Positions 5,539 to 55,121 of a DNA stretch of 64,000 nt are shown in pieces. Position numbers and translations under genes: made by a program. The stretch lies in contig CP084166.1 of assembly GCA_021513695.1 (NCBI GenBank), positions 2,272,001 through 2,336,000 of the forward strand, written 5' to 3'. This stretch comes from Candidatus Heimdallarchaeum aukensis (lineage in GTDB: Archaea; Asgardarchaeota; Heimdallarchaeia; Heimdallarchaeales; Heimdallarchaeaceae). Numbering within the stretch: position 1 is the stretch's first letter; the number at the start of each line of letters is the position of its first letter. Below the pieces are notes generated by a model. It made no database searches, was not told the origin of the DNA, and saw nothing but the letters and a program-made list of their open reading frames with translations.

Positions 5539-6465
5539 ATGACAAAGAACAAAGAAAAAAACATAACATTATCTTTACGTCCGATAACTAATCATAAAAT
5601 TAGAATAGTTAGAATCATTACACAATTAGTAATATTTAGCTTATTAAACGGGTTAATATTTGGGCTAGCTAGAGTAAGTTTAATTTTACCTATTGAATAC
5701 CCTACAGGAGGACCATTTTCTACGGTATGGAGTGGTTTTGAAGCGTTACAGTATGGGCTAACAATCTTTACCTTCCCCTATCTTGTAATAGCTATCTTTG
5801 GATTATTTGGAGCTGTGGCTGGAAAAACAACTTGTGGATGGGCTTGCCCAATGGGATTATTCCAAGATTTATTTAGTTACATCCCAATAAAAAAGAAAAA
5901 AGTTTCTAAACCAACAGAAAAGTCACTAAGAAGTTTCGCCGTGTTCATTATTATATTCGCTTTAGTATTCTCTTTAGTCATAGGAATATCTTATAATAAA
6001 AACGGTTCTGCAGCAAAAGACGCTTATGGAATATGGGGAAATATTCCTTATAGTGTGTTAGATCCCGTAGCAACAATTTTTGCAACTCTGTTTTATTATC
6101 TAAAATGGGGAATCCAAGCAGAAACACTTGGAGCTGAAATGGGTGATTGGAAATTTTGGTTTATTGCAAGAATATTATTCTTAGCAATAATCTTAATCCT
6201 CATAACCTTATATCCAAGAGCTTATTGTAGATGGTTCTGCCCAACAGGATACATATTAGGCTTTTTCAATAACTTTAGTCTATTTGGTTTAAAAATAAAT
6301 AAGAATAGATGTCCAACTGGTTGTAATAAATGTGAAAAAGCTTGTCCGGTTCAAGTACCTATACTAGATTATGATAAGAACATAACACATCCCAATTGTA
6401 CAAATTGTGGAGAATGTATAGATGCTTGTCCTGAAGGAGCTCTAAAAATAGGTTTCAGATTCTGA
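5539..6465 (+). CDS. NapH/MauN-like membrane polyferredoxin (4Fe-4S binding)
   Basis: Multiple TM segments plus CGWACPMG and CRWFCPTG motifs, and a C-terminal 2x[4Fe-4S] ferredoxin motif (CPTGCNKCEKACP … CTNCGECIDACP). Confidence 0.5.
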   Translation: MTKNKEKNITLSLRPITNHKIRIVRIITQLVIFSLLNGLIFGLARVSLILPIEYPTGGPFSTVWSGFEALQYGLTIFTFPYLVIAIFGLFGAVAGKTTCGWACPMGLFQDLFSYIPIKKKKVSKPTEKSLRSFAVFIIIFALVFSLVIGISYNKNGSAAKDAYGIWGNIPYSVLDPVATIFATLFYYLKWGIQAETLGAEMGDWKFWFIARILFLAIILILITLYPRAYCRWFCPTGYILGFFNNFSLFGLKINKNRCPTGCNKCEKACPVQVPILDYDKNITHPNCTNCGECIDACPEGALKIGFRF

Positions 6466-6519: not shown

Positions 6520-7773
6520 TTAACTTTGAATTTGTAAAGAATGATGGTATGCTTCTTTTTCTGTTTTTTGAAGAATAGAACTGTAACCTTTTTCTAAATA
6601 ATCCTGAATAATCGAAAGAACTGATTTTGATATGGGAAGTTTAACACTGTTATTAGTTTTCAGTATTTCTTCTATACTCACTTCAAGAGAGTCAAGATAA
6701 AGAGCAGCAGAATAAAGTTCCTTAATAAAGTTGTAATTCTTATGTATAATGAACCCTTTTAAATGAGACATTTTTAATAAAATCTCTGATAAAATTAAAT
6801 TAACCTTATTCGCTTGCTCTGGAATATATCGAATAGGAGAATAACCAAGTTTCATTTCATAATTATATCTAAAAGCTTTAACGCGCGGAAGAACCAATCC
6901 TAATCTTTTGAATGCTTTTCTGTCGAAATCCCCATATTTATCATTGTTTCCGTAAAGCTCTAAATATTTGGCTACCAAATGAGGATAATGTTTTCTAAGG
7001 GTATCAATAAATTCATCTTTATTTCTCCCTGGCTTAAGAGTAAGTCCCCAAGTGATAACATACTCTGCATTAGCTTTTTTTGCTTTGTGAAAAATATTTT
7101 CAATGTTTTCTTTTGTATCTCCAATAAAGGGTAAACATGGATTGAAATAAACCCCAGAATGTATTCCTTCTTTACGTAATTTAGAGATAGCTCGAAAACG
7201 ATCCTCTGAAGAACTAGCACGAGGTTCGAAAATCTTACGAACTGAATCATCCGCGAGAGTGATAGTGAAATTAACACTAGCATAAGTCTGTTCATTAATA
7301 GCTTTAAGCAAGTCAAGATCACGAAGAACGAGAGTGCTTTTTGTGAGAATGAAGACTGGTAATTCATAATCATGTATGACTTGAAGAAGTTTACGAGTAA
7401 GTTGAAGTTCTTTTTCTGCAGGTTGATAGACATCGCAAACTCCTCCACCTACAAAAATAACGAATTTAGAAGGAGAAGGCATCTGAATTCGCTCAACTGT
7501 AGTATCTAAATAGTTGAGTAATGAGTGGGATGAATTAGGAGAAAAAAATCCTCTTTTTTTGAGATATTTCTCCAAGAGCTCTGGAGCATTAACCTTAACT
7601 TTGATTCGATTAGCAAAATCTTCATGCATATAATAGGATTCAGCTTTACCGTCACAATATTTGCAATCGTGCCAACAACCCTGATAGGGATTAAGGTAAA
7701 CTTTAGCCCAAGAGAAAAAAGAAGGTGTTACTTCTTTAATTAACGATTTAGCACGAATACGTTCAATGATCAT
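6520..7773 (-). CDS. Radical SAM protein, SplB/DNA-photolyase-like (COG1533-type) with C-terminal extension
   Basis: NPYQGCWHDCKYC gives a CxxxCxxC cluster in the context typical of the SplB-like family. Confidence 0.55.
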   Translation of the reverse strand: MIIERIRAKSLIKEVTPSFFSWAKVYLNPYQGCWHDCKYCDGKAESYYMHEDFANRIKVKVNAPELLEKYLKKRGFFSPNSSHSLLNYLDTTVERIQMPSPSKFVIFVGGGVCDVYQPAEKELQLTRKLLQVIHDYELPVFILTKSTLVLRDLDLLKAINEQTYASVNFTITLADDSVRKIFEPRASSSEDRFRAISKLRKEGIHSGVYFNPCLPFIGDTKENIENIFHKAKKANAEYVITWGLTLKPGRNKDEFIDTLRKHYPHLVAKYLELYGNNDKYGDFDRKAFKRLGLVLPRVKAFRYNYEMKLGYSPIRYIPEQANKVNLILSEILLKMSHLKGFIIHKNYNFIKELYSAALYLDSLEVSIEEILKTNNSVKLPISKSVLSIIQDYLEKGYSSILQKTEKEAYHHSLQIQS

Positions 7774-7876: not shown

Positions 7877-8947
7877 TTAAAACGATAAGGAAAAAAAGTC
7901 ATTGTTATTAAGTTTCGAATGAAACAAATAGCTTTTCCATTCAAGTTTACACGAACAAGAAGGTAAGTCCTGAAGAATATTGGGATCTTGAGAAAGAGTG
8001 AAATCTTTTAGGGCTTGAACAATTGTAGAGTCACAAGAACCACAGTTATGAGCTCCTCTCTTTTTACCTCCTGCAACAGGGTCACAAATGATTCTTAAGT
8101 TGGGATAGAGAGTAGAAAGTTCTCGGCAGATATGTACAAGTGACCATAAGTAGGGGGGACGATAAAGATTCTTATCAAAAAGTGAAGAGAGATAAGTGTC
8201 GCGTTGTATATTTATTGCATTAATTGATACGGTGTCTACCCCTAAAGAAACAACCTGTCTAACACTGTTAAAAACGTCCAACATGGAGTCAAATTCTGAA
8301 ACAAAAGGTGGTTTGAAAAGAAGGTAAGCTTTAATTTTTGCCCCAAAGGAAAAAACACGTTTTGTAGCACGTTCGAAATCTTCCCAAAAGAAACCTTTGT
8401 TTATAGAATCACGAAGAATAGCATTATTCGCACTTTCTAATCCTATAGCAATCTCAACTTTAGAAATATCAAAGTGATCACGGAGAAGTGTTAGTTTTTT
8501 TTCTGTAACATATGAAGGTCGAGACTCTAGTACTAACTCTTTAATACTTGACGAATAAGGTTGAAGTTCATGAAGGATAGAAATTAGAACATGGTTTGGG
8601 ACTTCGAGAGAATCAAGAATGCTACCACTAGTAAATAGTTTTATAGAATAAGAAAGGGACGGATCAATTAAAGAGGATAATTTAGAAGAAAAATCAGAGA
8701 GCATCTCTGAAAAATCTGGTTTTTGAGGGTTATCATAAAGATAACCGCAAATTGAACAACCTCCACTACGAGAAAGAGCCCAAGAACAACCTCTTGTAGG
8801 AAGAATAAAAACAATAGCTTTTGCTGGGCCAGTACGAAGACGATGATCTTCAACCCATGCAACAAGACGACGTGAAGTAGAACGCTTGGAAAGGGCTGAT
8901 TGGCGGTAACTATGGATTATGGAACTAAAAGAAGGGTTTATTTTCAT
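7877..8947 (-). CDS. Archaeosine-associated radical SAM enzyme, RaSEA-like (TIGR01210/TIGR01212-type Cx9CxxC cluster)
   Basis: PTRGCSWALSRSGGCSICGY (C-x9-C-x2-C, as in the YhcC/TIGR01212 family). A 4-bp overlap with the upstream arcS-like gene suggests an operon. Confidence 0.5.
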   Translation of the reverse strand: MKINPSFSSIIHSYRQSALSKRSTSRRLVAWVEDHRLRTGPAKAIVFILPTRGCSWALSRSGGCSICGYLYDNPQKPDFSEMLSDFSSKLSSLIDPSLSYSIKLFTSGSILDSLEVPNHVLISILHELQPYSSSIKELVLESRPSYVTEKKLTLLRDHFDISKVEIAIGLESANNAILRDSINKGFFWEDFERATKRVFSFGAKIKAYLLFKPPFVSEFDSMLDVFNSVRQVVSLGVDTVSINAINIQRDTYLSSLFDKNLYRPPYLWSLVHICRELSTLYPNLRIICDPVAGGKKRGAHNCGSCDSTIVQALKDFTLSQDPNILQDLPSCSCKLEWKSYLFHSKLNNNDFFSLSF

Positions 8948-10872
8948 TTTGTTTCACCTTTTTTGAGTTTGAGTTTTTTCTTTACTATAGCTAAAGAACC
9001 AGATGACATTTTATTCATGTCAACACCAGCAATAAGTGCACGAGCAGTGGCCAAAACACAACCTGAATTAACAATAAATATTTCATCAGATGGAAGAATA
9101 AATTCAGAAGCGTGATTACAACCAGGGGCGTAGATAGAACTACCTGTGATGGTCTCTGCAGCAAAATCTAAGTTGACGAGAGAGTAATCGAGAATCTCTT
9201 GAGCTGCTGCTGGCTGGAGAGAAAGAAAACCTGTACGGGAAAGATATGTGGCTATAAGTTTTTTTTCTCTGAATATCTGGATGTCTCTAGGATATTTACC
9301 ACGAGTGCGAATTGGAGAAGAAAAGAGAATATTACCTGAGCCAGGACCGTATTGGTAATCTGCCGTAGCAATGAGTTTGCGGAGAAAAGGAGATAGATTG
9401 TGAGATGAATTGGAGTCAGTAAGGTCCAAAGAAGAAAAAACTTCGCGTAGGGTTGAAGAAAGATTAGAAAGAGATGAAGAACTAGTTGGACGATCAGATA
9501 TGGAAGTATGATATACAGTCAAATTCAAAGAATTAGAAACACGTTCAACTATATCAGAGTAACCTTGACCATATGTGTGATTAATAAGAATAATGTTTTC
9601 TGGAAACTTAGAAAGAACATCAATGAGAAGAGACGAAGTGACAGCTATTTCTTCTTCTGACCAGAAACCTGAAACTGGTATATCATAAAAACGAGGAGGA
9701 TAAAGAGATTCGAGTTCACGAGGAACAACAGAAAGCGGAGAGGTAATTATTAACTCTGAAAGAAATGGTAAAAAGGATTTTCCTGCTTGACGGAGAGATT
9801 GAATAAAAAGTGAATGAGAGCGAGAAAGAGAATAAGGTTTTCTTGCAGAACAAGGAAAAAGAATTACAACTCGAGTTTGAGGAGATGGATTAAAGCGTTC
9901 TCGAACACGATGTCGGAAAAGTTCAACTTCAGGACGATTAAGCGATGAAGAGCTAGTACAAACTAAAGAAGTAGACTGTTGAGCTGGAAAGCGAGAAAGG
10001 AAGGTAGAGGAATAGTTACGGTCGAAGTAATTGAGAGTCGAAGAAAGAAGGGGTGAAGAATGAACATCGCGTTCTACTAAAGTACGAAGGTTATCAGACT
10101 CCAAAAAGAAACGGATTTGAGAAAGTTTGTTAGCCATGACTTGAAGATTGTGTCCTAGGATGTCGGGAGGAGAAGAGCGGCAGAAAGAACAATAACATTC
10201 TGGATGATTAGAAAGAGGATAAACAGAATCAGAAGTGAGGAAAAAACCTCGTTCTGAGAGATAGTAAGCAAGAGAATCGTCGAAAAAGTCTATACCTGAA
10301 TAGACAAGAAAAGAATAATAGGCGGGGGCAATTGGACCAGGAACATATAGAGCTATATCTGGAGAAAGTCGAGAGCGTAGAGAAACAAATAATTCAGAAA
10401 GTTTACGCTGATTGTTAAAGAGAGAAGAAAGACCAGTAAGAACAAAAAAAGAACAGTCAGTAGATAAAACATCTTCTAATAGAGGAGAATCGAAGAAAGT
10501 ATAAGGTAAAGTAAAAATTTGAGAATGAAGGTCTGGGAGAGATAGAAAAGAGGTAACATATTCAGAAAAAGATGATTCTGACAGAGTAGATGAAACAAAC
10601 GAAGGGTAAAATGGTTGAGATGAAAGTGTAAAAGAAGAAGAAAGAACTCGCTCGGAAAGGTGAGGTGGAAAAGACCATCGTAACTGGAAAGAAGAATCTA
10701 AGTCAGAAAAACGGGGAGGAAAAGAAGAATCAAAAAAACCTGAAAAGCCAAAATTAGAAGGTTTGTTACCAGAATTGAAAGAGAGAAGACCTGGTGCGAG
10801 GATATGAGAAGTACGAGTCTCAGCTAAAAGGCGAGAAAAACCAAAGGCAGAGAGAGGTTGAAAGAAACGCAA
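8944..10872 (-). CDS. arcS: Archaeosine synthase ArcS (TGT-fold, Zn site, PUA C-terminus)
   Basis: Exact ArcS signature PCX3KPYX2SX2H (FPCSARKPYSLSRSH). TGT-like GIDFFDDS and Zn motif CYCSFC…H. C-terminal PUA-like domain. Extremely S/F/L-rich because of the pyrimidine-rich coding strand. Confidence 0.75.
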   Translation of the reverse strand: MRFFQPLSAFGFSRLLAETRTSHILAPGLLSFNSGNKPSNFGFSGFFDSSFPPRFSDLDSSFQLRWSFPPHLSERVLSSSFTLSSQPFYPSFVSSTLSESSFSEYVTSFLSLPDLHSQIFTLPYTFFDSPLLEDVLSTDCSFFVLTGLSSLFNNQRKLSELFVSLRSRLSPDIALYVPGPIAPAYYSFLVYSGIDFFDDSLAYYLSERGFFLTSDSVYPLSNHPECYCSFCRSSPPDILGHNLQVMANKLSQIRFFLESDNLRTLVERDVHSSPLLSSTLNYFDRNYSSTFLSRFPAQQSTSLVCTSSSSLNRPEVELFRHRVRERFNPSPQTRVVILFPCSARKPYSLSRSHSLFIQSLRQAGKSFLPFLSELIITSPLSVVPRELESLYPPRFYDIPVSGFWSEEEIAVTSSLLIDVLSKFPENIILINHTYGQGYSDIVERVSNSLNLTVYHTSISDRPTSSSSLSNLSSTLREVFSSLDLTDSNSSHNLSPFLRKLIATADYQYGPGSGNILFSSPIRTRGKYPRDIQIFREKKLIATYLSRTGFLSLQPAAAQEILDYSLVNLDFAAETITGSSIYAPGCNHASEFILPSDEIFIVNSGCVLATARALIAGVDMNKMSSGSLAIVKKKLKLKKGETK

Positions 10873-11055
10873 AAATTACACCTAATAAAAGAAAATAAAA
10901 GAAGATTAAAAAGAATACGATTAGAAAGAAAAGAAAGACGGAACATTAGAAATAATTAAAACGATTTATATAAAATTTAAAATAAAAAAGGCTAATACTC
11001 TTGAGAAAAAATCAGTTGTATAATAAAAAAAGCAAAAGAAAAACTTTTCAAAAGT

Positions 11056-11096
11056 AACGAAAATTTTAAAACAGTTAAAAAAGTAGAAGTATCAGA
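11056..11096 (+). repeat. 41-bp exact direct repeat, copy 1; imperfect similarity continues to ~11120. Upstream element of tRNA-Lys(CUU)
   Basis: Identical to 11275-11315. Contains the A/T-rich ttttaaaa box. Confidence 0.8.
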
Positions 11097-11132
11097 AAAG
11101 CCTAAAACTTGCGAAAACGAGCGTTTTAGATG

Positions 11133-11209
11133 GGCCTCGTGGCTTAGTTAGGTAAAGCAACGGACTCTTAATCCGTCGATCAGGGGTTCAAATCCCCTCG
11201 AGGTCACCA
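11133..11209 (+). tRNA. tRNA-Lys (anticodon CUU), CCA encoded
   Basis: Manual cloverleaf: acceptor GGCCTCG/CGAGGTC, anticodon stem ACGGA/TCCGT, loop CTCTTAA, T-arm GGGGTTCAAATCCCC, discriminator A plus CCA. Confidence 0.85.
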
Positions 11210-11274
11210 ATTTTTTAGATTGTTCTTTTAAATAAGTTTGAATCCTCTACAATCCATTTTTGATTTTATTCTTA

Positions 11275-11315
11275 AACGAAAATTTTAAAACAGTTAAAAA
11301 AGTAGAAGTATCAGA
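11275..11315 (+). repeat. 41-bp exact direct repeat, copy 2. Upstream element of tRNA-Lys(UUU)
   Basis: Identical to 11056-11096. Following ~25 bp are ~80% similar to those after copy 1. Confidence 0.8.
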
Positions 11316-11347
11316 CATGCTTAAGACTTGAGAAAACAACATTCTCG

Positions 11348-11455
11348 GGGCTTGTAGCTCAGCTAGGTAGAGCAGCAGGCTTTTAAGCTTTCTGCGAGCC
11401 ATGCAAAAGCGCTGACACCTGTCGGCCATGGGTTCGAATCCCATCAAGCCCGCCA
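11348..11455 (+). tRNA. tRNA-Lys (anticodon UUU) with ~31-nt intron at canonical 37/38 position (about 11386-11416); CCA encoded
   Basis: Acceptor GGGCTTG/CAAGCCC, anticodon stem GCAGG/CCTGT, loop CTTTTA then intron, T-arm ATGGGTTCGAATCCCAT, discriminator G plus CCA. Confidence 0.8.
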
Positions 11456-11556
11456 AACTCTTTTTACCTTGTTTGAAAAGAAATCAAGAAGAGATACTAT
11501 AAAGTCAAAAATTTTTTTCAACATATTTTAATAATTTATTATTTTCTATATCTTGC

Positions 11557-12606
11557 ATGAAAACTACTCATGAAATTATATACTCCTCTTCTAGCTCTCT
11601 TCCTTCTATTCTTTCAAGTAGTGTTAATATTGTTGTCACTTCTCCCCCTTATCCAATGATTGAGATGTGGGATGAGCTTTTTTTTAATCTTAATCCTGAA
11701 ATCAAAACTTCTTTAACCTCTTATCCATCTTTAGCTTTTGAGCTTATGCATTTAGAGCTTGACAAAACTTGGAATGAAATTGATCGTCTTCTCAAACCTG
11801 GTTCGATTGTTTGCATAAACATTGGTGATGCAACGCGAAAGATTGATGGTAACTTTGCTCTTTATTCTAATAGTTCTCGAATAATCAGAAAATTTCTTGA
11901 ATTGGGCTATTTTTGTTTACCTTCTATTCTGTGGCGCAAACAAACTAACTCTCCCACCAAATTTATGGGGTCAGGCATGCTTCCTCCCGGTGCCTATGTA
12001 ACTTTAGAACATGAGCACATCTTGCTTTTCCGTAAAGGTTCTAAGCGAGAGTTTAATTCTTCCGAATCTAAATTGAATCGTCGTCGTAGCGCTTATTTTT
12101 GGGAAGAACGTAACCTTTGGTTTTCTGATATTTGGGAGTTTAAAGGCGTAAGTCAAAAACTAAATTCTGAAGTTTTGCGCTCTCGTAGTGCTGCATATCC
12201 TTTTGAGTTAGCTTTTCGCCTTATTAACATGTTTTCAGTTCAAGGTGATACAGTTCTTGATCCTTTTTTAGGTACGGGAACAACTACTCTAGCAGCTATT
12301 ACTTCATGTCGTAACAGTATTGGTGTAGAAATTGATAAAAATTTCAAGGCTATTATTCTCGAAAGCATAAGAAAGGTAAAAGATTTTGCAAATGGTTATA
12401 TTGATAATCGTTTGCAGGCACATCTGGCTTTTGTTAAACAAAAAGAAGAAACACATTCCTTTAAGCATCGTAACTCTATTTATGGTTTTCCTGTTATGAC
12501 TGCACAAGAAACTGATCTTTACTTTCCTAAAATTAAAAATGTTAAAATAAAAGATGAATCGCTTTTCGAAATTATTTATAAAAATAAAGAAAAGATTTAT
12601 TCGTAA
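11557..12606 (+). CDS. Beta-class DNA methyltransferase (N4-cytosine or N6-adenine), orphan
   Basis: Motif IV VVTSPPYP near N-terminus, motif I DPFLGTGTT near C-terminus (beta circular permutation). No adjacent restriction endonuclease candidate. Confidence 0.65.
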   Translation: MKTTHEIIYSSSSSLPSILSSSVNIVVTSPPYPMIEMWDELFFNLNPEIKTSLTSYPSLAFELMHLELDKTWNEIDRLLKPGSIVCINIGDATRKIDGNFALYSNSSRIIRKFLELGYFCLPSILWRKQTNSPTKFMGSGMLPPGAYVTLEHEHILLFRKGSKREFNSSESKLNRRRSAYFWEERNLWFSDIWEFKGVSQKLNSEVLRSRSAAYPFELAFRLINMFSVQGDTVLDPFLGTGTTTLAAITSCRNSIGVEIDKNFKAIILESIRKVKDFANGYIDNRLQAHLAFVKQKEETHSFKHRNSIYGFPVMTAQETDLYFPKIKNVKIKDESLFEIIYKNKEKIYS

Positions 12607-13376
12607 AAATCATCTCTTGTTCCAAACTCTCTTTCTATTGCAGCGATTAGTGTTTCTATATTATGCATAGTTGTCGCGCTTATTGGAAACAGTTCACCTG
12701 TGTTTCTAAATTGTTCTATAGTTTGTATTATGTTCAATCCTAGTTGTTTTGATAATGATATTGTTTGTCCTCTTTCTATTTCTATTCCTATTGTTTCTGG
12801 TTCTTCTATCCATCTTTCTAATCTTTCTTTGTGATCTTTTTTTATTAAATCTGCTTTTGAAATTACGGGTATTTGAGGGAGTTCTAATTGGAATTCTACT
12901 GATAGGCTTAGTAATAATATGCTTGCTAAACCTTCAGGTTTTAGTACTAATGATGGATCTATTAGGAACACCGATACAGGTTCTCTGTTTTCTTTTAACA
13001 TATTAGCGATAAACTTTCCACTGCTTCTATATGCAAATAATTCTATTTGTCCTGGTGTGTCTACGATTAAATATTGAGGGTCAACGTACTCCACTTCTGA
13101 CATCAAATCATGTATTTTAGTTGCTATTAGGTCCATACTGGCTATCATCGCCCCATTTGGACCTAGGTTGTATTCGTTTACTATTTCATTTATGTCTACT
13201 ATATCTCTTACATCTATCGCAGGAGCGTAAGGTATTGTTCTTACACCCGCATCTAAGTTAAGTATACCTACATCTAACTTCTTTTCCGAGAACCAATCAA
13301 ATAATGTCCTTGTCAGAAAAGTTTTTCCTGCTCCCGCAGTTCCAAGTAGGTAAATTATGTATTTTCTATCTGGCAC
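12597..13376 (-). CDS. GPN-loop GTPase (XAB1/Gpn family)
   Basis: Walker A GTAGAGKT, signature GPNGAM loop, DTPGQIE, ISKADL. Confidence 0.8.
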   Translation of the reverse strand: MPDRKYIIYLLGTAGAGKTFLTRTLFDWFSEKKLDVGILNLDAGVRTIPYAPAIDVRDIVDINEIVNEYNLGPNGAMIASMDLIATKIHDLMSEVEYVDPQYLIVDTPGQIELFAYRSSGKFIANMLKENREPVSVFLIDPSLVLKPEGLASILLLSLSVEFQLELPQIPVISKADLIKKDHKERLERWIEEPETIGIEIERGQTISLSKQLGLNIIQTIEQFRNTGELFPISATTMHNIETLIAAIEREFGTRDDFYE

Positions 13377-13379
13377 TTT

Positions 13380-14165
13380 TTATTCTCCTATTTCTGTTAT
13401 CTTTATTTTGGGTTGATTCTCTTTTATTTTATCCATCAAAAACCTTTTTGCTTTTGCGACTATTTTTTCTCCTTCTTCTCCAGAATATGAAAAATGAATT
13501 GTTATTCCTTTTCTTTCTCCAAATTGAGGATGAGATTTAACATACAGTTTTTTAAATTTCTTCTTTGTTTGATTAATATAAGGTGCTATCTCACTTTCTC
13601 TACAGTTTTCTATCAGTATTTTACATTCTGTTATGCGGGTTTTTATTTTAGACGATAGGTAAGGGTGAATAGCCGTTGTGTATATAGATTTCACCTCCGT
13701 TGGGACACCAGGCAAACAGAATATCTCTGTTTTCTTATATTTTATTAAACATCCTGGCGCTGCTCCCGCACTGTTGTTTAGTATTTTTCCTCCTTCAGGT
13801 ATCATTGCCATCTTTCTTCTCTCTTCACTCATTTCTAATCCATACTTTTCATAATGCTCTTTTATTAACTCTAAGGCTTCTTTATTTTCTATAAGTCTCT
13901 TTCCTGTTACTCTTGATATAACTTCCATTTGTATATCATCATATGTTGGACCCAATCCACCTGTGACAATCAATATTTCTGGTTCTCTCTCTATGACTTC
14001 TTTAATGCACTCGCTTGCTTGTTCTAGATCATCCCTTACACTAGTTATTCTTCTTACTTCTATTCCTAATCTGGTTAGCTGTTCTCCAAGGTAAGTTGCG
14101 TTTGTATTAACAGTAATTCCCATTAGCAGTTCGTTTCCTAAACAAACAATCTCCGCTGTAACCAT
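13380..14165 (-). CDS. CinA-like molybdopterin-binding (MoCF-biosynthesis) domain protein
   Basis: N-terminal AEIVCLGNELLMG…VTGGLGPTYDDI is typical of the CinA/MoaB-fold N-domain. Confidence 0.55.
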   Translation of the reverse strand: MVTAEIVCLGNELLMGITVNTNATYLGEQLTRLGIEVRRITSVRDDLEQASECIKEVIEREPEILIVTGGLGPTYDDIQMEVISRVTGKRLIENKEALELIKEHYEKYGLEMSEERRKMAMIPEGGKILNNSAGAAPGCLIKYKKTEIFCLPGVPTEVKSIYTTAIHPYLSSKIKTRITECKILIENCRESEIAPYINQTKKKFKKLYVKSHPQFGERKGITIHFSYSGEEGEKIVAKAKRFLMDKIKENQPKIKITEIGE

Positions 14166-14195
14166 TTTTTTTCCTTCTTTACATTTTTCTAATTA

Positions 14196-15272
14196 TTATT
14201 TTGATCTGTTTACTCCCATTTTTGCTATTTCTATGAGATATTCTTTATACTTCTTTTCAAATGCAGGCTCTGCTTTTTCAATAAACAATTTACATGTTGA
14301 GAATAATTCTTCTGCTTTTGCTTTAGCATAATCTAAAGCTCCTGTTTCTCTCATAATGTCTTTTATTTCTTCTATTTCTTCTTTTGTTGCATTTCTTTTC
14401 CCAATTACTTGTTTGAGTTTGTCTTTTTCTTTGTCATTCGCATTTTCTATTGTCTTTATTAGTAAAATTGTTTTTTTTCCTTCTTTAATATCGCTATCTA
14501 CTGGTTTTCCTGTTTTCATTTCATCTCCAAACGTACCAATGATGTCATCTACAATCTGGAAAGCTATTCCCATATTTCTTGCATAGGATGACAAAGCTTT
14601 AAGTTGCGTTTCTTCTGCTTCTGCATAAATTGCTCCCATTTTTGTTGCTTTTTCAAATAACGCTGCTGTTTTTCCATTTATCATTTCAAAATATTGCTTT
14701 TCTGTTACTTCAAATCTCCCTTGCATGTCTGTTTCATAGATGACCCCTTTTACAACTTCCATAAATCCCTTATTAAATTCTGAAGCTGCTTTTATCATTA
14801 TATCTGGTTTGAAATCTACTCTGTTTAGTGCTTTGTATGCTAAATTATAAACAAAATCTCCCCCTAGTATCCCCATGGCTAGGCCATAATCTTCAGGTTG
14901 AACATTCTTTTTGGGATAATTTTGCTTTGAATAATCTCTTAAAACTACATGAAAAGCTTTTTTTCCTCTTCTTGTTTCAGCAAAATCCATTATGTCATCA
15001 TGAATTAAACTAGCATTATGAAGAAGCTCTATCGATAATGAAGCAGGATAAATGGATTCATTGAAGTTAGTGTTTAAACAAGCTTCATAGGAAAGTAACA
15101 TAAGTACTGGTCTTATCCTTTTTCCTCCTGAAAATAGAAAATTATTAACTTCTTGAACATAATATTCTAAAAAAGGATTGTCCTTACATGCAGCAATTTC
15201 TTCGTTTATAAACTGTGTAAGTGCAATATTTACTTGTTCCATTTTTTTAGTGTAGAAACCTTTGAAATTCAT
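14196..15272 (-). CDS. idsA: Polyprenyl (geranylgeranyl) diphosphate synthase
   Basis: FARM LIHDDIMDFAETRRGK and SARM IVDDIIGTFGDE (two DDxxD motifs). Confidence 0.8.
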   Translation of the reverse strand: MNFKGFYTKKMEQVNIALTQFINEEIAACKDNPFLEYYVQEVNNFLFSGGKRIRPVLMLLSYEACLNTNFNESIYPASLSIELLHNASLIHDDIMDFAETRRGKKAFHVVLRDYSKQNYPKKNVQPEDYGLAMGILGGDFVYNLAYKALNRVDFKPDIMIKAASEFNKGFMEVVKGVIYETDMQGRFEVTEKQYFEMINGKTAALFEKATKMGAIYAEAEETQLKALSSYARNMGIAFQIVDDIIGTFGDEMKTGKPVDSDIKEGKKTILLIKTIENANDKEKDKLKQVIGKRNATKEEIEEIKDIMRETGALDYAKAKAEELFSTCKLFIEKAEPAFEKKYKEYLIEIAKMGVNRSK

Positions 15273-15420
15273 TAACTATCCCTTGATATTTTGAGAGAAA
15301 GGTAATATTATTAATTTTTTTCTAAGAATTTATCCTTATCTGTATTTTCCATTTTTTTAAATTAAAAAATCCTTTATCCCAATTTATTTAAACTCTCTTT
15401 CCTTCCTTTATAAGAATAAT

Positions 15421-16050
15421 ATGCATTCCTATTTAAAAAAATTTCAAGAAGTTGCACAATCAATTGAAACAGAACTTAATAAAAAATCAACTTTAAAGGA
15501 AAAGTTGCTAAAGTTATCTCGTGATCTAGTAAAAACTTCTGGAAAAGTTATTTCAAATGTCCATTCAAAAAGAGTAAACGAAGCAGAACAGTTGCTCTCT
15601 ACTGCTATGTCACTTCACTCTCAGATCTGTGAGTTACTTTCTCAAGATCCGTCTTTTACAGATTCAGGATATATTTTAACAGCTTTACAAGAGTTTACTG
15701 AAGCCCACATTTTCTTCTCTTTGATTTCTAATTCTCCAATTCACTCTCCAACAGAGTTAAATGTAACTGATCAAGCTTACTTGTTAGGAATTGCAGATGT
15801 TATTGGAGAACTTCGGAGGCATATTCTTGAGATATTAATAAATGATAATATTGAGGAAGCAAAGAGGTTTTTTCAATTAATGAAAGACTTGTATGATATT
15901 TTCTTACAAATAGAAATCGACAAATCTTTGATCAGTGACTTTAGAAGAAAGCGGGACATGGCTAGAGTTTTGATAGAAAAAACTCTCTCCGATTTGTTTA
16001 TTGCAATTCAAAGTAAAAGATTAGAACTAAAAATGAAAGACTTAAGCTAA
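15421..16050 (+). CDS. Translin-like protein
   Basis: C-terminal region (YLLGIADVIGELRRHI … DIFLQIEIDKSLISDFRRKRDMARVLIEKTLSDL) resembles translin helical blocks. Homology judged by eye only. Confidence 0.45.
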   Translation: MHSYLKKFQEVAQSIETELNKKSTLKEKLLKLSRDLVKTSGKVISNVHSKRVNEAEQLLSTAMSLHSQICELLSQDPSFTDSGYILTALQEFTEAHIFFSLISNSPIHSPTELNVTDQAYLLGIADVIGELRRHILEILINDNIEEAKRFFQLMKDLYDIFLQIEIDKSLISDFRRKRDMARVLIEKTLSDLFIAIQSKRLELKMKDLS

Positions 16051-17423
16051 TCTCTTGTAATAATTAATACTCCCACATCCATTACGTTTGTACCAGTGTA
16101 TCCCGTGATTATTTCTCCATGGAATTTATGGAAAAAACTATTCGTATCATGCTTTTTTAAACTCTTTTTTGCCTCTTTTTTTCTTAGTCTGTTACTAATT
16201 GTAAACGGCCCTACAATTGCTCCAGCTGCCTCAGAATTTCCGTCAATACCATCAGTTCCAAATTCAATAAGATATGCTTTTTTATTCTTTCCTAGCTTTA
16301 ATACAAAAGACAGAGCTAACTCTTGATTTCTTCCGCCTTTTCCAATATTTTCTGTATTTTTAGGAAGTTCTACTGTGGTTTCTCCACCCCACAAAAAAAC
16401 TCTCTCTCGTGGATTTTTTTTCACATATTTTTTAGCTATCCACTTACCTATTTTTGCAGCCTTTCCTTCAATGTTGTATGAAATTATTTCTCCATCGATA
16501 TTGTTTTGCTCTAAAATGTTTTCTCTTAAATGGTTTAGAACTACTTGGTTGCTACCGATTAATACATTATTTACTTTACGGAATTTTTCTCTATCTTTCG
16601 GAGTTTCATAATTTTTTTGTTTATGTCTATCTTGTAGTATCTCTTTTACTTCTATTGGTAATTTCTTTTCAATTTTGTATTTTCTAATTATTCTTTTACA
16701 GTCTTCCCATGTTGTTGTATCCATAACCGTAGGACCTGAAGATATGTTTGTTGGGTCATTCCCTGGTACATCAGAGATAATAAATGAATAGATATTTGCA
16801 GATGTATAGTTAACTATTTTTCCCCCTTTGATTTGAGAAAAGTGTTTTCTTACAGTATTTATTTCATGTATTGTGGCACCACTTGATAATAAAAGTTTCA
16901 TTAACTTTACATAACTATCCATTTTGATTATTGGTAGTTCAAATAGAGATGATCCTCCTCCTGAGATGAGGAAAATGCAAACATCTTGTTCTTTTAATTT
17001 TGACAGTATTTCGATTGTTTTTTTGGCAGCTTTTATACTTTCATCATTTGGTATAGGATGTCCTCCCCTAAAAAAATGACAATTTGGGATATTTTTTATT
17101 TTATCACTTGGTTCATCAGGAGAAGAAATAAGTATCTGATTAAAGGAATAGGGGGCATTTGTTATAAACCAATTAGCCATTGTCTGTGCTGCTTTTCCAA
17201 ATGAAATTAAGTAAAAATTTGCATTTTTGTCAAATACAAATTTCTCTTTTTTGCATATCAAGCTATTTTCTTCAAATTTTATATTTCTATTCAAAAAAGA
17301 ACTCGGTTGTGCAAAATTTATAGCTTCTTCTGCTGTATCTAATAGAAGTTTTACATATTTTCTTTCCTTCTCATCTGAGATTTTTGATAGAATTTCTCTC
17401 TTATTTTTAATCCATTCACTCAT
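16047..17423 (-). CDS. Glycerate 2-kinase, MOFRL family
   Basis: N-terminal DUF4147-like region plus C-terminal MOFRL blocks (GGGSSLFELP, ISSGPTVMD, GGRNQELALSF, GTDGIDGNSEAAGAIVGP). Confidence 0.65.
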   Translation of the reverse strand: MSEWIKNKREILSKISDEKERKYVKLLLDTAEEAINFAQPSSFLNRNIKFEENSLICKKEKFVFDKNANFYLISFGKAAQTMANWFITNAPYSFNQILISSPDEPSDKIKNIPNCHFFRGGHPIPNDESIKAAKKTIEILSKLKEQDVCIFLISGGGSSLFELPIIKMDSYVKLMKLLLSSGATIHEINTVRKHFSQIKGGKIVNYTSANIYSFIISDVPGNDPTNISSGPTVMDTTTWEDCKRIIRKYKIEKKLPIEVKEILQDRHKQKNYETPKDREKFRKVNNVLIGSNQVVLNHLRENILEQNNIDGEIISYNIEGKAAKIGKWIAKKYVKKNPRERVFLWGGETTVELPKNTENIGKGGRNQELALSFVLKLGKNKKAYLIEFGTDGIDGNSEAAGAIVGPFTISNRLRKKEAKKSLKKHDTNSFFHKFHGEIITGYTGTNVMDVGVLIITRD

Positions 17424-17426
17424 TCT

Positions 17427-18062
17427 TTACATCCTGATGTTCTTTTGGATAATTTCTTGCATAATTTTTGAGGTTGATTTTCCTGGAACATATTGATTTA
17501 ATCTGATTATCTTTATATGTTCTAATCTATTCTCTTTTAATCTATTCTTTAGATCTTCTTCATTGAATTTTTGGTCATAACCTAAAGCTATAATATCTGG
17601 CATTATCTGCTTTACTGTTAAAATGAAATCTTCTTCATTTCCAATAACTGCCACATCTACATCTTTTATGTGGGCTATTACTTGTGCTCGATCCTTTTGC
17701 GAATTTGTTGGTTCGCGTTTTTTTAATTTCCTAACATTATTATCTGTAGTTATAACTACAACAAGCACATCCCCTAGTAACTTTGCCTGTTTAAGGGTAA
17801 AAATATGCCCAATGTGAATGAGGTCAAATACTCCCCCAGTCATAACTACTGAAATTTGTTTCCTCCCAAATTCTGTCAACGATAAATCATTTTCGTCTTG
17901 TCTTGCCAAAGAACCATTTCTTATTAATTCGTTAACAGTTTCTTGGATAATCTCTACAGGCAGTTCTAATCTTCGAGCAAGGTTTATACTATTCGTCTTT
18001 CTTTTTACTAATATGTCACAATAAGCATGTCTTAGAATCAAATTATCAATTGAGCCTGTCAT
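17427..18062 (-). CDS. ribL: FAD synthase RibL-like nucleotidyltransferase fused to an N-terminal winged-HTH domain
   Basis: VMTGGVFDLIHIGHIFTLKQAKLLGDVLVVVITTDNNV matches the archaeal RibL (H/T)xGH cytidylyltransferase fold. ~70-aa N-terminal HTH extension. Confidence 0.6.
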   Translation of the reverse strand: MTGSIDNLILRHAYCDILVKRKTNSINLARRLELPVEIIQETVNELIRNGSLARQDENDLSLTEFGRKQISVVMTGGVFDLIHIGHIFTLKQAKLLGDVLVVVITTDNNVRKLKKREPTNSQKDRAQVIAHIKDVDVAVIGNEEDFILTVKQIMPDIIALGYDQKFNEEDLKNRLKENRLEHIKIIRLNQYVPGKSTSKIMQEIIQKNIRM

Positions 18063-18068
18063 CTTTTA

Positions 18069-18761
18069 TCAACTTTTTTTTAATGAATATCGAATTATTA
18101 TTTCGTCTCCGTCCTTCAAGTTAAATTTTTCCCTAATATTAATGTCACTTACAATTTCTGCTATATTTTTTCCATAATGCGTTCTTCTTGGAACAATAAT
18201 TGCAGCTTTTTCATCAGAGTCAAATAGTTTAACTGAATAGCATAACACATCTCCAAAACTTCTTCCTTCTTCTTTAAAGCCAGTTATTATCTTTGGAAAT
18301 GATCCTCTAATAAGATCTAATTTCTCGACATCATTAGGGTCTATTCTTACATTTAGTGTTCCAGGGTAAGGGACAAAGCCTAGTGTCTTTTTGAAACTTT
18401 TTACATAACTTGGTTGAGACATATAATATTTTCCTTCTCCAAATCCAGTAAAAACTAATCCACGCAACACAAGTTCTGTTTTATCAGGGTGGATAGCTTT
18501 TTCTAGCTCAAATCGAAGGTTATGTAGTGTCTCAATACCCTTATCAGTTAACTGTGCATTAGAACCTCTAGGGCCTGATTCCCATAAAATAAAATCCATT
18601 GCTGCCAGTTTCAATAAGTATCTTGACGCACTTTGTTGAGACATATTGAATACTTTAGCAACTTCTGTTGTAGTAATCTCCACTTTATGATCGATTGCAT
18701 GCTTTTGTGCTATATATATTAGTAATCCAATCTCTCGATTTGATAAATGAAAAATGTTCAC
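18069..18761 (-). CDS. ribK: CTP-dependent riboflavin kinase with N-terminal HTH (RbkR-type)
   Basis: Archaeal RibK signature LRGLVFTGFGEGKYYMSQPSYV…PYPGTLNVRI. N-terminal wHTH (AKVFNMSQQSASRYLLKL). Confidence 0.7.
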   Translation of the reverse strand: MNIFHLSNREIGLLIYIAQKHAIDHKVEITTTEVAKVFNMSQQSASRYLLKLAAMDFILWESGPRGSNAQLTDKGIETLHNLRFELEKAIHPDKTELVLRGLVFTGFGEGKYYMSQPSYVKSFKKTLGFVPYPGTLNVRIDPNDVEKLDLIRGSFPKIITGFKEEGRSFGDVLCYSVKLFDSDEKAAIIVPRRTHYGKNIAEIVSDINIREKFNLKDGDEIIIRYSLKKS

Positions 18762-19219: not shown

Positions 19220-19516
19220 ATGAAAGAAGAAAATTACAATTTTGATTTATGGTCTGAAGAGCTATCAAAATCAATAAGAAATTGGGTTGAAACAACAATA
19301 TGCAATTTACAGAATGACCTAAAACAATTCCATGGTCCATTGAAACAATTCTCACAAATTTCATCAGAAGGAATACAAACTGCATTGGTTAATTTTACAA
19401 CAAATCTAAAAGAAACAATAACAGAATTATCGGAAGATTTCTTAGATACAATAGAAGATGCTCTTGATGCTATTGAGGATGTAATGGAAGATCTAGAAGA
19501 AGCTGCTGAAGAATAA
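19220..19516 (+). CDS. Small acidic alpha-helical protein (98 aa from the SD-preceded ATG)
   Basis: GGAGG then ATG at 19220. Very acidic C-terminus (EDALDAIEDVMEDLEEAAEE). The track ORF starts earlier at 19172. Confidence 0.35.
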   Translation: MKEENYNFDLWSEELSKSIRNWVETTICNLQNDLKQFHGPLKQFSQISSEGIQTALVNFTTNLKETITELSEDFLDTIEDALDAIEDVMEDLEEAAEE

Positions 19517-19785
19517 AAAGAGAAATAAAAAAAAGTAAACGGTGAAAAAAATGGAAAGTAAATATATTGGAATGAATTTGTTGAAAAGTTTATCAAACTT
19601 AGATAAGGGGATGAGAAAGAAAAATATTGGAATGTATTTCCTTTACTTTTCTTCTCTAAATAGAAATTATTTGTATAAGACTTTTAATTGTTTTGAATTA
19701 TCGTCAAACAAATTCTCAAATGATATAGCCTATCTTGTAGCAAATAATTCTTGGAATATCAGTTCTATAGAGAGGAGGATTTTCT

Positions 19786-42539: not shown

Positions 42540-42878
42540 ATGCTGAGCTGATAGCAACAGCTAAAGTGGGAAGCTAGGGCTCTCCTGTAACCGGAAACGC
42601 TCTATATGCCGGGCTGAAAACTGCTGCTGAGGGCTCGTCGAGGAAGATACGCTCTGTCTGGAAAGCGTCGAAGCATCGCCCCATGAGATTGTGCACACCC
42701 GAGGCGCCTTTGGAGGAAGGTGTTAGAAGGGTTGAGATCAAAAAGGGTCAGGCACGGAAGTGAGCAGCCCTAAGATCGATGCATGATGCCCATGGCAAGC
42801 GGTGTGGAGCTTAAGGGCAGTAAAACGGCTTCCAAAACGGGTTCGAACAGCAGGCTGCTAAGATTAGTTCAGCAGTCT
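42540..42878 (+). ncRNA. ffs: Signal recognition particle RNA (archaeal 7S-type)
   Basis: GC-rich island in an AT-rich genome. Alu-domain motif CCTGTAACCGGAAACGC…ATATGCCGGGC. Helix-8 motif GGTCAGGCACGGAAGTGAGCAGCC. Terminal helix GCTGAGCTGA/TTAGTTCAGC. T-tract after the 3' end. Confidence 0.65.
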
Positions 42879-54057: not shown

Positions 54058-54132
54058 GGGGTAGTAGTCTAGTGGTATGACAACGCCTTCACGCGGCGTA
54101 GGTCGCAGGTTCAATTCCTGCCTACCCCACCA
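54058..54132 (+). tRNA. tRNA-Val (anticodon CAC), CCA encoded
   Basis: Acceptor GGGGTAG/CTACCCC, anticodon stem ACGCC/GGCGT, loop TTCACGC, T-arm GCAGGTTCAATTCCTGC. Confidence 0.85.
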
Positions 54133-54140
54133 CTAACAAT

Positions 54141-55121
54141 TTGTTGAGAAATCAAATGTCAGAATCAAATACTGATCACGGATTTATTGACCTTTTTTCG
54201 GGAGCTGGAGGTTTTAGTTCTGGGTTTAGACTTGCTGGCTTTAAAGAATTACTCGCTATTGAAAGAGATCCCTCTGCCTTAAGAACATACAACTTGAACC
54301 TGCCTGATGCAATTTGTATAAATGATGATATACGAAATATTCATTCCTTAGAAATAGAACAAAAATGTTCTCAAAAACCAACAGTTATATTAGCTTCTCC
54401 TCCTTGTGAACCATTCACTGCTGCAAATACAAAACGAAAGGAAACTGCGTGGGAAAGGTTTTTTGAGGACCCTCAAGGTGATTTAATTTTTCATGCAATA
54501 AGGATAATCAAAGACTTGAATCCCGATTTTTTTGTTATTGAAAATGTTGTGCCTATTATAGATGGTGAAGGAAAAGATATTATTCTCGAAGCTTTTGCAG
54601 ACTCCAAATTCCAAGACATCCATTTTAATGTTATTCGTGCAGAAAAACACGGTTCTCCTTCTTCTAGAAAACGTGTTTTTATTTCTAACATTAATCTTAA
54701 TTTAGAGAAAAAAAAGACTGTTACTGTTGGTCAAGCTTTATCTGGTCTTCAGGATCCTTCCTATCCAAATGATCTTCCCAATCATTTTTTATCTCCTGTT
54801 CCTGATAAGATTCAAAAAAGAATTCATCAAATCAAGCCTGGGCATGCAGCTGTTTACTTTGAAGGAGCTTTAAGTGAAAAAGTAAATTGGGTCAAGCTTG
54901 ATAAAGACAAAGTTTCCCCTACTGTGATGGGGAAATCTCGATTTATTCATTTTCATCAAGATAGAGCCTTAACTGTACGTGAACATGGACGATTGATGAC
55001 CTTTCATGATGATTTTAAATTTACTGGAACGATTGAGGAAATGTATAACCAAGTTGGAGAGGCAGTTCCTCCATTAATTTCTTATTTGATCGCAGAAGAG
55101 ATAAAAAAACAAATTAGTTGA
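54141..55121 (+). CDS. dcm: DNA (cytosine-5)-methyltransferase, orphan
   Basis: Motif I FIDLFSGAGGFSSGF, motif IV ASPPCEPFT (PCE instead of canonical PCQ), motif VI FVIENV, motif VIII region QDIHFNVIRAEKHGSPSSRKR. Starts 9 bp after tRNA-Val. Confidence 0.8.
   Translation: MLRNQMSESNTDHGFIDLFSGAGGFSSGFRLAGFKELLAIERDPSALRTYNLNLPDAICINDDIRNIHSLEIEQKCSQKPTVILASPPCEPFTAANTKRKETAWERFFEDPQGDLIFHAIRIIKDLNPDFFVIENVVPIIDGEGKDIILEAFADSKFQDIHFNVIRAEKHGSPSSRKRVFISNINLNLEKKKTVTVGQALSGLQDPSYPNDLPNHFLSPVPDKIQKRIHQIKPGHAAVYFEGALSEKVNWVKLDKDKVSPTVMGKSRFIHFHQDRALTVREHGRLMTFHDDFKFTGTIEEMYNQVGEAVPPLISYLIAEEIKKQIS

Follow-up and report, generated by a model that had tools for sequence, protein, structure and literature searches.

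A pair of tRNA-Lys genes in Candidatus Heimdallarchaeum aukensis marks the centre of an abrupt, mirror-image change in strand composition. The window analysed comprises 64,000 nucleotides of contig CP084166.1 (assembly GCA_021513695.1, positions 2,272,001 to 2,336,000 of the forward strand), and positions below count from its first letter. Within it the bias is a strand-fixed, antisymmetric step at the tRNA-Lys genes (11133-11455), irrespective of gene orientation; on either DNA strand, the sequence is purine-rich 5' of the site and pyrimidine-rich 3' of it. The bias peaks at the tRNA genes, fades over about 1-12 kb and touches silent sites, intergenic DNA and, via them, the amino-acid composition of neighbouring proteins, including the archaeosine synthase subunit ArcS. 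It belongs to tRNA-Lys genes of both isoacceptors and recurs across Heimdall lineages. There is good support for a bias that is set by position and mutational in nature. We infer that it probably reflects a mutation pressure locked in position and centred on tRNA-Lys, with outward opening or synthesis of DNA as the likeliest cause, and not selection or foreign origin.

Strand composition was followed through Y4, the share of pyrimidines among plus-strand bases at four-fold degenerate sites. Left of the tRNA genes, Y4 is 0.42 in the plus-strand gene at 5539, then 0.30 (radical SAM gene 6520), 0.28 (RaSEA) and 0.21 (ArcS), the last three being minus-strand genes. On the right it is 0.77 in a plus-strand DNA methyltransferase (MTase) gene and 0.73 in the minus-strand GPN GTPase gene, followed by 0.64, 0.66, 0.55 (translin, plus strand), 0.66, 0.62 and 0.63; past ~24 kb it is down to about 0.5-0.55. 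The right-flank block contains six minus-strand genes with hyper-purine coding strands (Y4 0.62-0.73), and only its plus-strand translin gene shifts weakly. Since minus-strand genes are hyper-purine right of the tRNAs and hyper-pyrimidine left of them, a coding-strand bias, gene-specific or arising from a gene's own transcription, is ruled out. Intergenic DNA obeys the same rule as the genes. In 60-nt bins, purines make up 0.62-0.78 of the sequence as far as 11139, then 0.48 and 0.40 in the next two bins (tRNA-Lys(CUU) and the early inter-tRNA spacer), and intergenic values past the second tRNA are 0.30-0.50. The switch from purine to pyrimidine is located within the tRNA-Lys pair, at tRNA-Lys(CUU).

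The coding strand of ArcS has a purine fraction of 0.344, compared with 0.559 ± 0.039 in 42 distant genes (z = -5.5). Against the same genes, z is -3.4 for RaSEA, a moderately biased gene with a purine fraction of 0.425 on its coding strand and 0.28 at four-fold sites, and -2.5 for the MTase. In ArcS every codon position is shifted, and the four-fold sites are T 0.64, A 0.19, C 0.15 and G 0.02. Purines prevail on the plus strand over ~9150-11100, where GC skew reaches +0.49 and AT skew +0.56. A first-pass annotation of this DNA had pointed to the strand bias of the ArcS region and to a compositional anomaly around the tRNA locus, and both observations hold, the anomaly taking the form of the antisymmetric step at the tRNA-Lys pair. 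Its description of the flanking genes (GPN GTPase and radical SAM gene 6520) as ordinary is incorrect. Gene 6520 has a four-fold coding purine fraction of 0.30, a bias like that of ArcS, while the GPN, MoCF-type and polyprenyl synthase genes are hyper-purine on the coding strand (0.64-0.73, relative to a mean of 0.50), which is the opposite in coding terms.

A survey of 87 sequences (86 loci and the window) set the 2.5 kb to the left of each of 2076 test positions against the 2.5 kb to its right. Heimdall tRNA-Lys genes accounted for all of the eight largest jumps, which represent five independent loci: L011, a metagenome-assembled genome contig (CAZHRF010000009.1), at 0.70; the window at 0.54, together with L083 and L084, which are variants of its strain; L012 at 0.49; L081 and L082 at 0.22; and L009 at 0.19. 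The background had a standard deviation of 0.073 and a 99th percentile of 0.19. All tRNA-Lys sites in the survey showed a positive jump, and further loci with genes on both sides step likewise. tRNA genes of other archaea in the survey gave -0.09 to +0.13, inside the background range. A metagenome scan for the tRNA-Lys pattern added 10 contigs, mostly short.

In L011, Y4 runs through 0.52, 0.46, 0.41, 0.39, 0.37, 0.29, 0.32, 0.15 and 0.10 up to tRNA-Lys(UUU) and through 0.87, 0.67, 0.64 and 0.51 beyond it, a step spanning genes of both orientations. On the same contig, 16.5 kb from the UUU gene, tRNA-Lys(CUU) has its own switch from 0.30 to 0.78 (L100). Further switches at tRNA-Lys(CUU) go from 0.45 to 0.81 in L104, where a two-intron tRNA was read by eye, and from 0.30 to 0.50 in L106. 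The Logan contig ERR15087768_1633 (L097) switches at tRNA-Lys(UUU) and, 5.8 kb away, a second time at tRNA-Lys(CUU). Its Y4 passes from 0.46 through 0.24, 0.18, 0.11 and 0.05 to 0.04 at the first switch, rises to 0.97, and falls through 0.92, 0.71, 0.38 and 0.08 to 0.05 at the second, forming a sawtooth that crosses 0.5 midway.

These loci also rule out the bias as a property specific to ArcS. Most Heimdall ArcS orthologues are near-normal, with purine fractions of 0.49-0.53. In L009 and L012 an extra gene lies between the tRNA and ArcS, and the step remains at the tRNA (0.24 to 0.84 in L012); ArcS itself is normal in L009 (0.46). In L097, ArcS is 11 kb from the nearest tRNA-Lys and is likewise normal at 0.53.

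Orthologous genes found on opposite sides of the switch behave as their position predicts. The block from GPN GTPase to riboflavin kinase differs in side or orientation relative to the switch between the window and L011 or L081, and it is inverted in the window relative to both. The coding four-fold purine fraction is 0.63 in the window and 0.10 in L011 for riboflavin kinase, 0.62 and 0.15 for the CTP-transferase-like gene, and 0.66 and 0.32 for MOFRL; for the oppositely oriented translin gene it is 0.45 and 0.71. Amino-acid composition tracks the bias, Ser, Phe, Leu and Pro together making up 22.7% of MOFRL in the window compared with 34.7% in L011. As the bias of an orthologue swaps with its side of the tRNA, the pressure is position-dependent and has re-equilibrated after rearrangement.

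Other RNA genes of the window served as controls. The gene for tRNA-Val(CAC), a tRNA that serves a rare codon, is accompanied by a weak step with the same polarity (Y4 0.51 to 0.64, a difference of 0.13). The archaeal signal recognition particle (SRP) RNA gene (42554-42861; Rfam 114.8 bits) has no strand-bias step around it. No tRNA is present in the 10 kb past the right end of the window. A tRNA-free 20-kb Heimdall stretch (L105) showed no sawtooth, its genes with at least 49 four-fold sites ranging from 0.43 to 0.62. As an exception, one gene for a protein of 147 aa (47 sites) is at 0.70.

The effect on protein composition bears on the question of selection. Ser, Phe, Leu and Pro account for 45% of ArcS, against ~31% in orthologues. 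Serine alone reaches 17%, against 9-12% in Heimdall orthologues that lack extreme bias. Lysine falls to 2.8%, compared with 6.3-8.1% in such orthologues and with 3.3% in the independently skewed L011 orthologue. It might be supposed that strands of pure purine or pyrimidine are kept for a structural or regulatory role, as polar motifs, triplex-prone DNA or a means of chromatin exclusion, and both the conserved location of the bias and its strength, with as much as 95% pyrimidine at silent positions, are compatible with such a role. Nevertheless, the composition of essential enzymes is degraded, as the lysine content of both ArcS proteins shows; among close lineages the bias ranges from nearly absent to extreme; and its smooth decay with distance is typical of a rate process. 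Selection is accordingly regarded as a barely credible cause.

In the most extreme genes, four-fold sites on the pyrimidine-rich strand are T 0.74, C 0.20, A 0.035 and G 0.018, and G+C is nearly unchanged (0.22 versus 0.26 in baseline genes). Pyrimidines have taken the place of purines on the strand whose 5' to 3' direction leads away from the tRNA. A purine-to-pyrimidine change results when a purine in single-stranded DNA is lost or oxidised and another purine is then inserted across from the damaged position. Under the favoured reading, the DNA at heavily used tRNA-Lys genes would be opened repeatedly, or synthesis repeatedly begun there, and the process would then proceed outward in both directions. 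The strand running 5' to 3' away from the tRNA would be the one most often single-stranded; it would shed purines, for example by depurination or oxidation, and A or G would be inserted opposite the lesion. Lysine codons dominate AT-rich, lysine-rich proteomes, and the two tRNA-Lys genes may plausibly have the strongest promoters.

Several processes would expose a strand with the right geometry: it could be the lagging-strand template of forks leaving the tRNA, the strand displaced when DNA synthesis proceeds outward (by strand displacement or from an R-loop primer), or the non-template strand when transcription does so. Strands exposed by break resection, or by forks converging on a barrier, would have the wrong geometry. 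Limited-range outward synthesis, R-loop-primed or origin-like, is slightly preferred over read-through with divergent transcription, the geometry being common to both. In its most specific form, this proposal makes the tRNA-Lys genes fixed starts of outward DNA synthesis (R-loop-primed or promoter-associated, in short tracts or as dense competing initiations) that would produce a eukaryote-like sawtooth asymmetry and remodel neighbouring proteins; this form is put forward as a tentative possibility.

Transcription alone is a close rival. In this model the tRNA-Lys promoters, as the strongest in an AT-rich and lysine-rich organism, would drive terminator read-through and divergent antisense transcription for kilobases outward, and the exposed non-template strand, which does not benefit from transcription-coupled repair, would shed purines. 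In human tumours, mutations from purine adducts fall preferentially on the non-template strand, and symmetric archaeal promoters have been reported to drive divergent transcription. The switch lies exactly at tRNA genes and near-palindromic TATA elements (AAAATTTTAAAA), a decay over kilobases suits progressive termination, both Lys isoacceptors are affected, and the low-demand tRNA-Val(CAC) steps only weakly. However, the effect is of about the same size in the upstream and downstream flanks and does not vary consistently with the orientation of the tRNA. A reach of at least 12 kb across opposing genes in the window would imply massive antisense transcription of essential genes, and the SRP RNA gene has no step. 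Moreover, the ArcS coding strand, here the pyrimidine-rich non-template strand, contains 14 runs of five or more T residues, which are not depleted relative to synonymous shuffles. Archaeal RNA polymerase terminates at runs of this kind. A constraint imposed by read-through, in the form of selection against T-runs in ArcS, was considered and rejected on the same lack of depletion; expression of full-length ArcS mRNA may itself be attenuated by these runs. The transcription model is possible but less probable.

A further alternative treats the tRNA-Lys genes as fork barriers or termination sites, or as sites of recurrent double-strand breaks, the skew arising from converging forks or from resection-repair tracts. 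An antisymmetric profile with an abrupt centre and kilobase-scale tails is the shape that a barrier under dispersed initiation, or resection tracts, would give. The tRNA-Lys locus is a rearrangement hot spot, as seen in the block inverted relative to L081 and L011, in a 1.2-kb insert in Ca. Heimdallarchaeum endolithica and in contigs that end at ~11524. In addition, yeast tRNA genes are known for fork pausing and R-loops. The polarity does not fit: the strand exposed in these processes would run 5' to 3' towards the tRNA, and this is the strand that is purine-rich here, so that purine loss, judged from lesion chemistry, would give the opposite sign. This alternative is considered unlikely.

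Several observations also weigh against the favoured reading of outward opening or synthesis. No Orc1/Cdc6 gene was found in the window or in annotated relatives, no repeat resembling an origin recognition box (ORB) was found at the switch, and only a tRNA promoter element is shared. Decay over kilobases is unlike ordinary replichore skew, and a spacing of 5.8 kb between two switches does not resemble that of classical origins. On the pyrimidine-rich strand C exceeds G, the opposite of the usual deamination signature of leading or non-template strands. When substitutions were polarised with Ca. H. endolithica, the left flank gave 23 purine-to-pyrimidine and 14 pyrimidine-to-purine changes, too few to establish a directional bias. 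The controls comprise one non-Lys tRNA (Val-CAC, 0.13) and one SRP RNA (no step); with so few, a Lys-specific effect and one that scales with tRNA expression are inseparable. The amplitude varies ~30-fold among lineages, with no correlate identified.

Comparison of the window with L083 showed no rise in divergence centred on the tRNAs; divergence was 0-3% per kb and patchy. Over positions 1-20800 (98.7% identity), some kilobases differ by 0-0.5% and those at 6-8, 9-11 and 16-18 kb by 2.1-3%, as expected from recombination imports.

The step resembles the skew jumps at bacterial and archaeal oriC and those bounding human 'N-domains' in being an abrupt, antisymmetric change of strand composition that is independent of gene orientation, and in the roughly linear fall between two neighbouring jumps in L097. 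It differs in that purines and pyrimidines are exchanged (T and C together), which is not the usual G+T type; in an amplitude near saturation (0.04 versus 0.97) with tails of about 1-12 kb; and in being centred on tRNA-Lys, with no Orc1/Cdc6 or ORB and with two centres 5.8 kb apart. Among the features that identify archaeal origins, the polarity change independent of gene orientation is present and orc1/cdc6 and ORB sequences are absent. A classical chromosomal origin is disfavoured because of the kilobase-scale decay, the two close centres and the lack of orc1/cdc6 or ORB. For Heimdallarchaeia, the absence of any genome-wide GC-skew signal of bidirectional replication has been reported (PMC11291895), and the paper describing closed Heimdallarchaeum genomes does not mention skew (PMC8813620).

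Eukaryotic tRNA genes show excess mutation over tens of bases, dominated by transitions (C>T, G>A) and proposed to scale with transcription (Thornlow et al. 2018, PMC6130373). That transcription-associated mutagenesis likewise centres on active tRNA genes. The Heimdall spike differs in being kilobases long, transversional and mirror-imaged, and in reshaping neighbouring proteins. In the literature searched, the coverage of which was incomplete, no account was found of a purine/pyrimidine spike that extends for kilobases around tRNA genes as a mirror image on the two sides.

The identity of the ArcS and RaSEA genes was examined in view of their composition. ArcS carries FPCSARKPYSLSRSH, which corresponds to PCX3KPYX2SX2H. 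In Pfam it matches DUF5591 (PF17884; 146 bits, residues 316-475), TGT_C2 (PF14810; 30.5 bits, cutoff 25.3) and TGT (PF01702; 27.4 bits, cutoff 26.3). Alignment of 13 Heimdall ArcS sequences, that of the window included, showed the motif residues P340, C341, K345, P346, Y347, S350 and H353 to be invariant, together with C226, C228, C231 and H241. The signature and the TGT zinc site read from the sequence by the first-pass annotation are both borne out. So are the ArcS and RaSEA assignments, while the PUA domain it named scores below threshold (PF01472; 19.5 bits, Pfam threshold 24.8), the NCBIfam ArcS alignment reaching profile position 574 of 575. Matches among solved structures were AF0587 (2q07), covering the region of the DUF5591 motif, and ArcTGT (1iq8) over residues 156-324. 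The NCBIfam ArcS profile (NF040592) gives 363 bits over residues 137-632, under its curated equivalog cutoff of 440; the shortfall is put down to compositional drift because orthologues of ~50% identity span the full length. The first ~136 residues, unmatched by the profile, are conserved among Heimdall ArcS. RaSEA overlaps the ArcS stop by 4 nt and has no Pfam Radical_SAM match at E <= 0.01. The pairing of the genes predicts transfer of lysine to preQ0-tRNA by ArcS and RaSEA. Public annotations label the orthologues 'DUF5591 domain-containing' or 'hypothetical'.

A chance open reading frame (ORF) on a stop-poor strand is ruled out for ArcS, the probability of meeting no stop being ~2e-12. Measured against the 98.7%-identical strain variant, pN/pS is 0.15 for ArcS and 0.20 for RaSEA, and ArcS is under purifying selection. 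Orthologues across Heimdallarchaeia align at ~50% identity over the full length, and in most of them tRNA-Lys(UUU) lies just 5'. The distance is 50-130 bp in L001, L002, L003 and L081, and the tRNA lies within ~4 kb in the other Heimdall loci that have one. The order tRNA-Lys(UUU)-ArcS-RaSEA is conserved synteny across Heimdallarchaeia. The conservative reading in the first-pass annotation, a native tRNA archaeosine pathway, is upheld by this synteny, the full-length identity and the pN/pS of ArcS: ArcS-RaSEA is the organism's own archaeosine pathway, and its genes are ordinary and native.

The pair resembles euryarchaeal ArcS-RaSEA of Thermococcus kodakarensis (PMC11298593) in having a TGT-like N-domain, DUF5591 with PCX3KPYX2SX2H, a C2 domain and a putative PUA-like C-terminus, and an adjoining radical SAM partner that scores above the TIGR01210 cutoff. 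It differs from that system in the 66% pyrimidine coding strand of ArcS, with 17% Ser and 2.8% Lys in the protein, and in an ArcS score under the NCBIfam cutoff with the first ~136 residues off-profile.

The same annotation had raised the possibility of a laterally acquired nucleic-acid modification module, that is, an island with an ArcS-like enzyme and a DNA MTase inserted at a tRNA gene and retaining the composition of its donor. In its favour, the MTase and radical SAM gene 6520 are missing from the locus in other Heimdall lineages, the MTase family occurs in distant taxa at ~60% identity, and tRNA genes are used as integration sites by mobile elements in Heimdallarchaeum (PMC8813620). Nevertheless, the bias follows the absolute strand, flips sign at the tRNAs, reaches housekeeping genes on both sides and recurs where ArcS is not adjacent (L097). 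The ArcS-RaSEA-tRNA-Lys synteny is conserved with full-length orthologues of Heimdall type, and ArcS is under purifying selection. The target-site duplications suggested for the tRNA-Lys 3' ends are absent, each 3' end occurring once with 3 mismatches allowed. No integrase was present among the Pfam matches of the window genes scanned, and no tgt/dpdA or queC, queD or queE, the genes that mark a Dpd-like cluster for 7-deazaguanine DNA modification, was found among the window ORFs scanned, small ORFs having been scanned in part. The lateral-island reading is largely refuted and now seems very improbable. The locus shares with tRNA-linked islands, including the Heimdallarchaeum aloposons and HeimV1 (PMC8813620), a compositional anomaly beside a tRNA, lineage-specific genes at the junction (MTase and radical SAM) and a tendency to rearrange. 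It differs in having no att repeat or integrase and in an anomaly that flips at the tRNA and covers conserved housekeeping genes; uniform foreign composition and absence from relatives, which mark such islands, are likewise not seen at the locus.

For gene 6520 no orthologue was found in other Heimdall loci, and only this gene and the MTase have been added to the locus in a lineage-specific way. Acquisition of the MTase at some point is probable; it shares the local bias now because of its position. It matches PF01555 (130 bits, residues 23-268), and VTSPPYP followed by DPFLGTGTT is the motif order of the beta class, as the first reading of the sequence had proposed. No restriction gene lies beside it, its neighbours being a tRNA and the GPN GTPase gene. 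The protein is 95% identical to one of Ca. H. endolithica, and many archaea and bacteria have members of the family at 57-63% identity, some of them named M.MthZI or cytosine-N4-specific. The features of the locus are listed in Table 1.

Table 1. Positions and strands of the features discussed, numbered from the first letter of the window.
Feature	Position	Strand	Remarks
PA0069/Rv2578c-like radical SAM protein	6520..7773	-	lineage-specific; outer left flank of spike
RaSEA, radical SAM partner of ArcS	7877..8947	-	TIGR01210 306 bits, cutoff 212
ArcS (archaeosine synthase alpha subunit), 642 aa	8944..10872	-	purine-rich plus-strand side of switch
Intergenic region, purine-rich (A-rich)	10873..11132	.	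ends at first tRNA; holds promoters of ArcS and tRNA-Lys(CUU)
Promoter repeat copy 1 (AACGAAAATTTTAAAACAG…)	11056..11118	+	5' of tRNA-Lys(CUU); repeat family D1
tRNA-Lys(CUU)	11133..11209	+	ARAGORN; Rfam 71.8 bits
Promoter repeat copy 2	11275..11337	+	5' of tRNA-Lys(UUU); 92% identical to copy 1
tRNA-Lys(UUU), intron after anticodon loop	11348..11455	+	Rfam 60.7 bits; ARAGORN with intron search; fold
Orphan beta-class N4/N6 DNA methyltransferase (SPPY … FLGTG)	11557..12606	+	first gene on pyrimidine-rich side
Seven-gene housekeeping block	12597..18761	- (translin +)	right flank of spike
tRNA-Val(CAC)	54058..54132	+	sole non-Lys tRNA usable as control

The housekeeping block consists of the genes for GPN GTPase, a MoCF-type protein, polyprenyl synthase, translin, MOFRL, a CTP-transferase-like protein and riboflavin kinase. 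The two tRNA-Lys genes stand in tandem, 138 nt apart, and each is preceded by one copy of a 63-nt promoter repeat. The locus had been described at first as a duplicated tRNA-Lys unit. This is right for the promoters and wrong for the tRNAs, which are two isoacceptor genes. A related element, CGAAA(G/A/C)TTTTA, was found 5' of the Heimdall tRNA-Lys genes examined.

The organism is closely related to Ca. H. endolithica, and the flanks of the locus are 91-93% identical in DNA to CP084167.1 of that species around 2.51-2.53 Mb. In that genome (L102, 8188-10000) the two tRNA-Lys genes are convergent and ~1.2 kb apart, with an ORF of 106 aa between them; they contain extra introns, one of them in the T-loop region, and neither gene is detected by ARAGORN or Rfam. 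Two metagenome contigs of the strain variant, independent of one another (L085 and L086), end at ~11524, past tRNA-Lys(UUU) and ~30 nt ahead of the MTase start, which suggests structural heterogeneity or a repeat in the population. In L011, ~450 nt of hairpin-rich non-coding DNA of mixed composition (9445-9890), missing from the window, lie between tRNA-Lys(UUU) and ArcS.

Elsewhere in the window, a C5 cytosine DNA methylase gene (54141-55121; PF00145) begins 9 nt past tRNA-Val(CAC) in the same orientation. It is the second MTase gene of the window directly 3' of a tRNA, and the four genes to its right have a raised plus-strand Y4 of 0.60-0.67. A pyrimidine-rich ORF of 120 aa at 19234-19596 on the minus strand is probably spurious; JGI calls a 91-aa gene on the opposite strand at ~19221-19496 (+). 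On contig L094, 850 nt between the PCMT and UPP synthase genes (1200-2040) have no credible ORF and no Rfam match, with G+C of 0.42-0.46, and may be an unannotated RNA. The genes to their right have Y4 of 0.07-0.08, which implies another strong switch just past the contig end.

The findings have consequences for the reading of these genomes. Strong local mutation pressure can drop essential, vertically inherited genes under family cutoffs, as with ArcS in NCBIfam, RaSEA in Pfam and the PUA domain. Native genes biased in this way can mimic foreign islands, and calls of lateral transfer based on composition need a strand-aware control. The locus also offers a clean natural experiment on how far the composition of proteins held under purifying selection is reshaped by mutation bias alone. 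Heimdallarchaeia are the archaeal group nearest to eukaryotes. If the bias marks the opening or copying of DNA, it would provide a testable handle on replication, R-loops and the interplay of transcription and replication in uncultured Asgard archaea. If outward synthesis does start at tRNA-Lys genes, silent-site skew would amount to a map, drawn from sequence only, of where replication or repair begins in these organisms.

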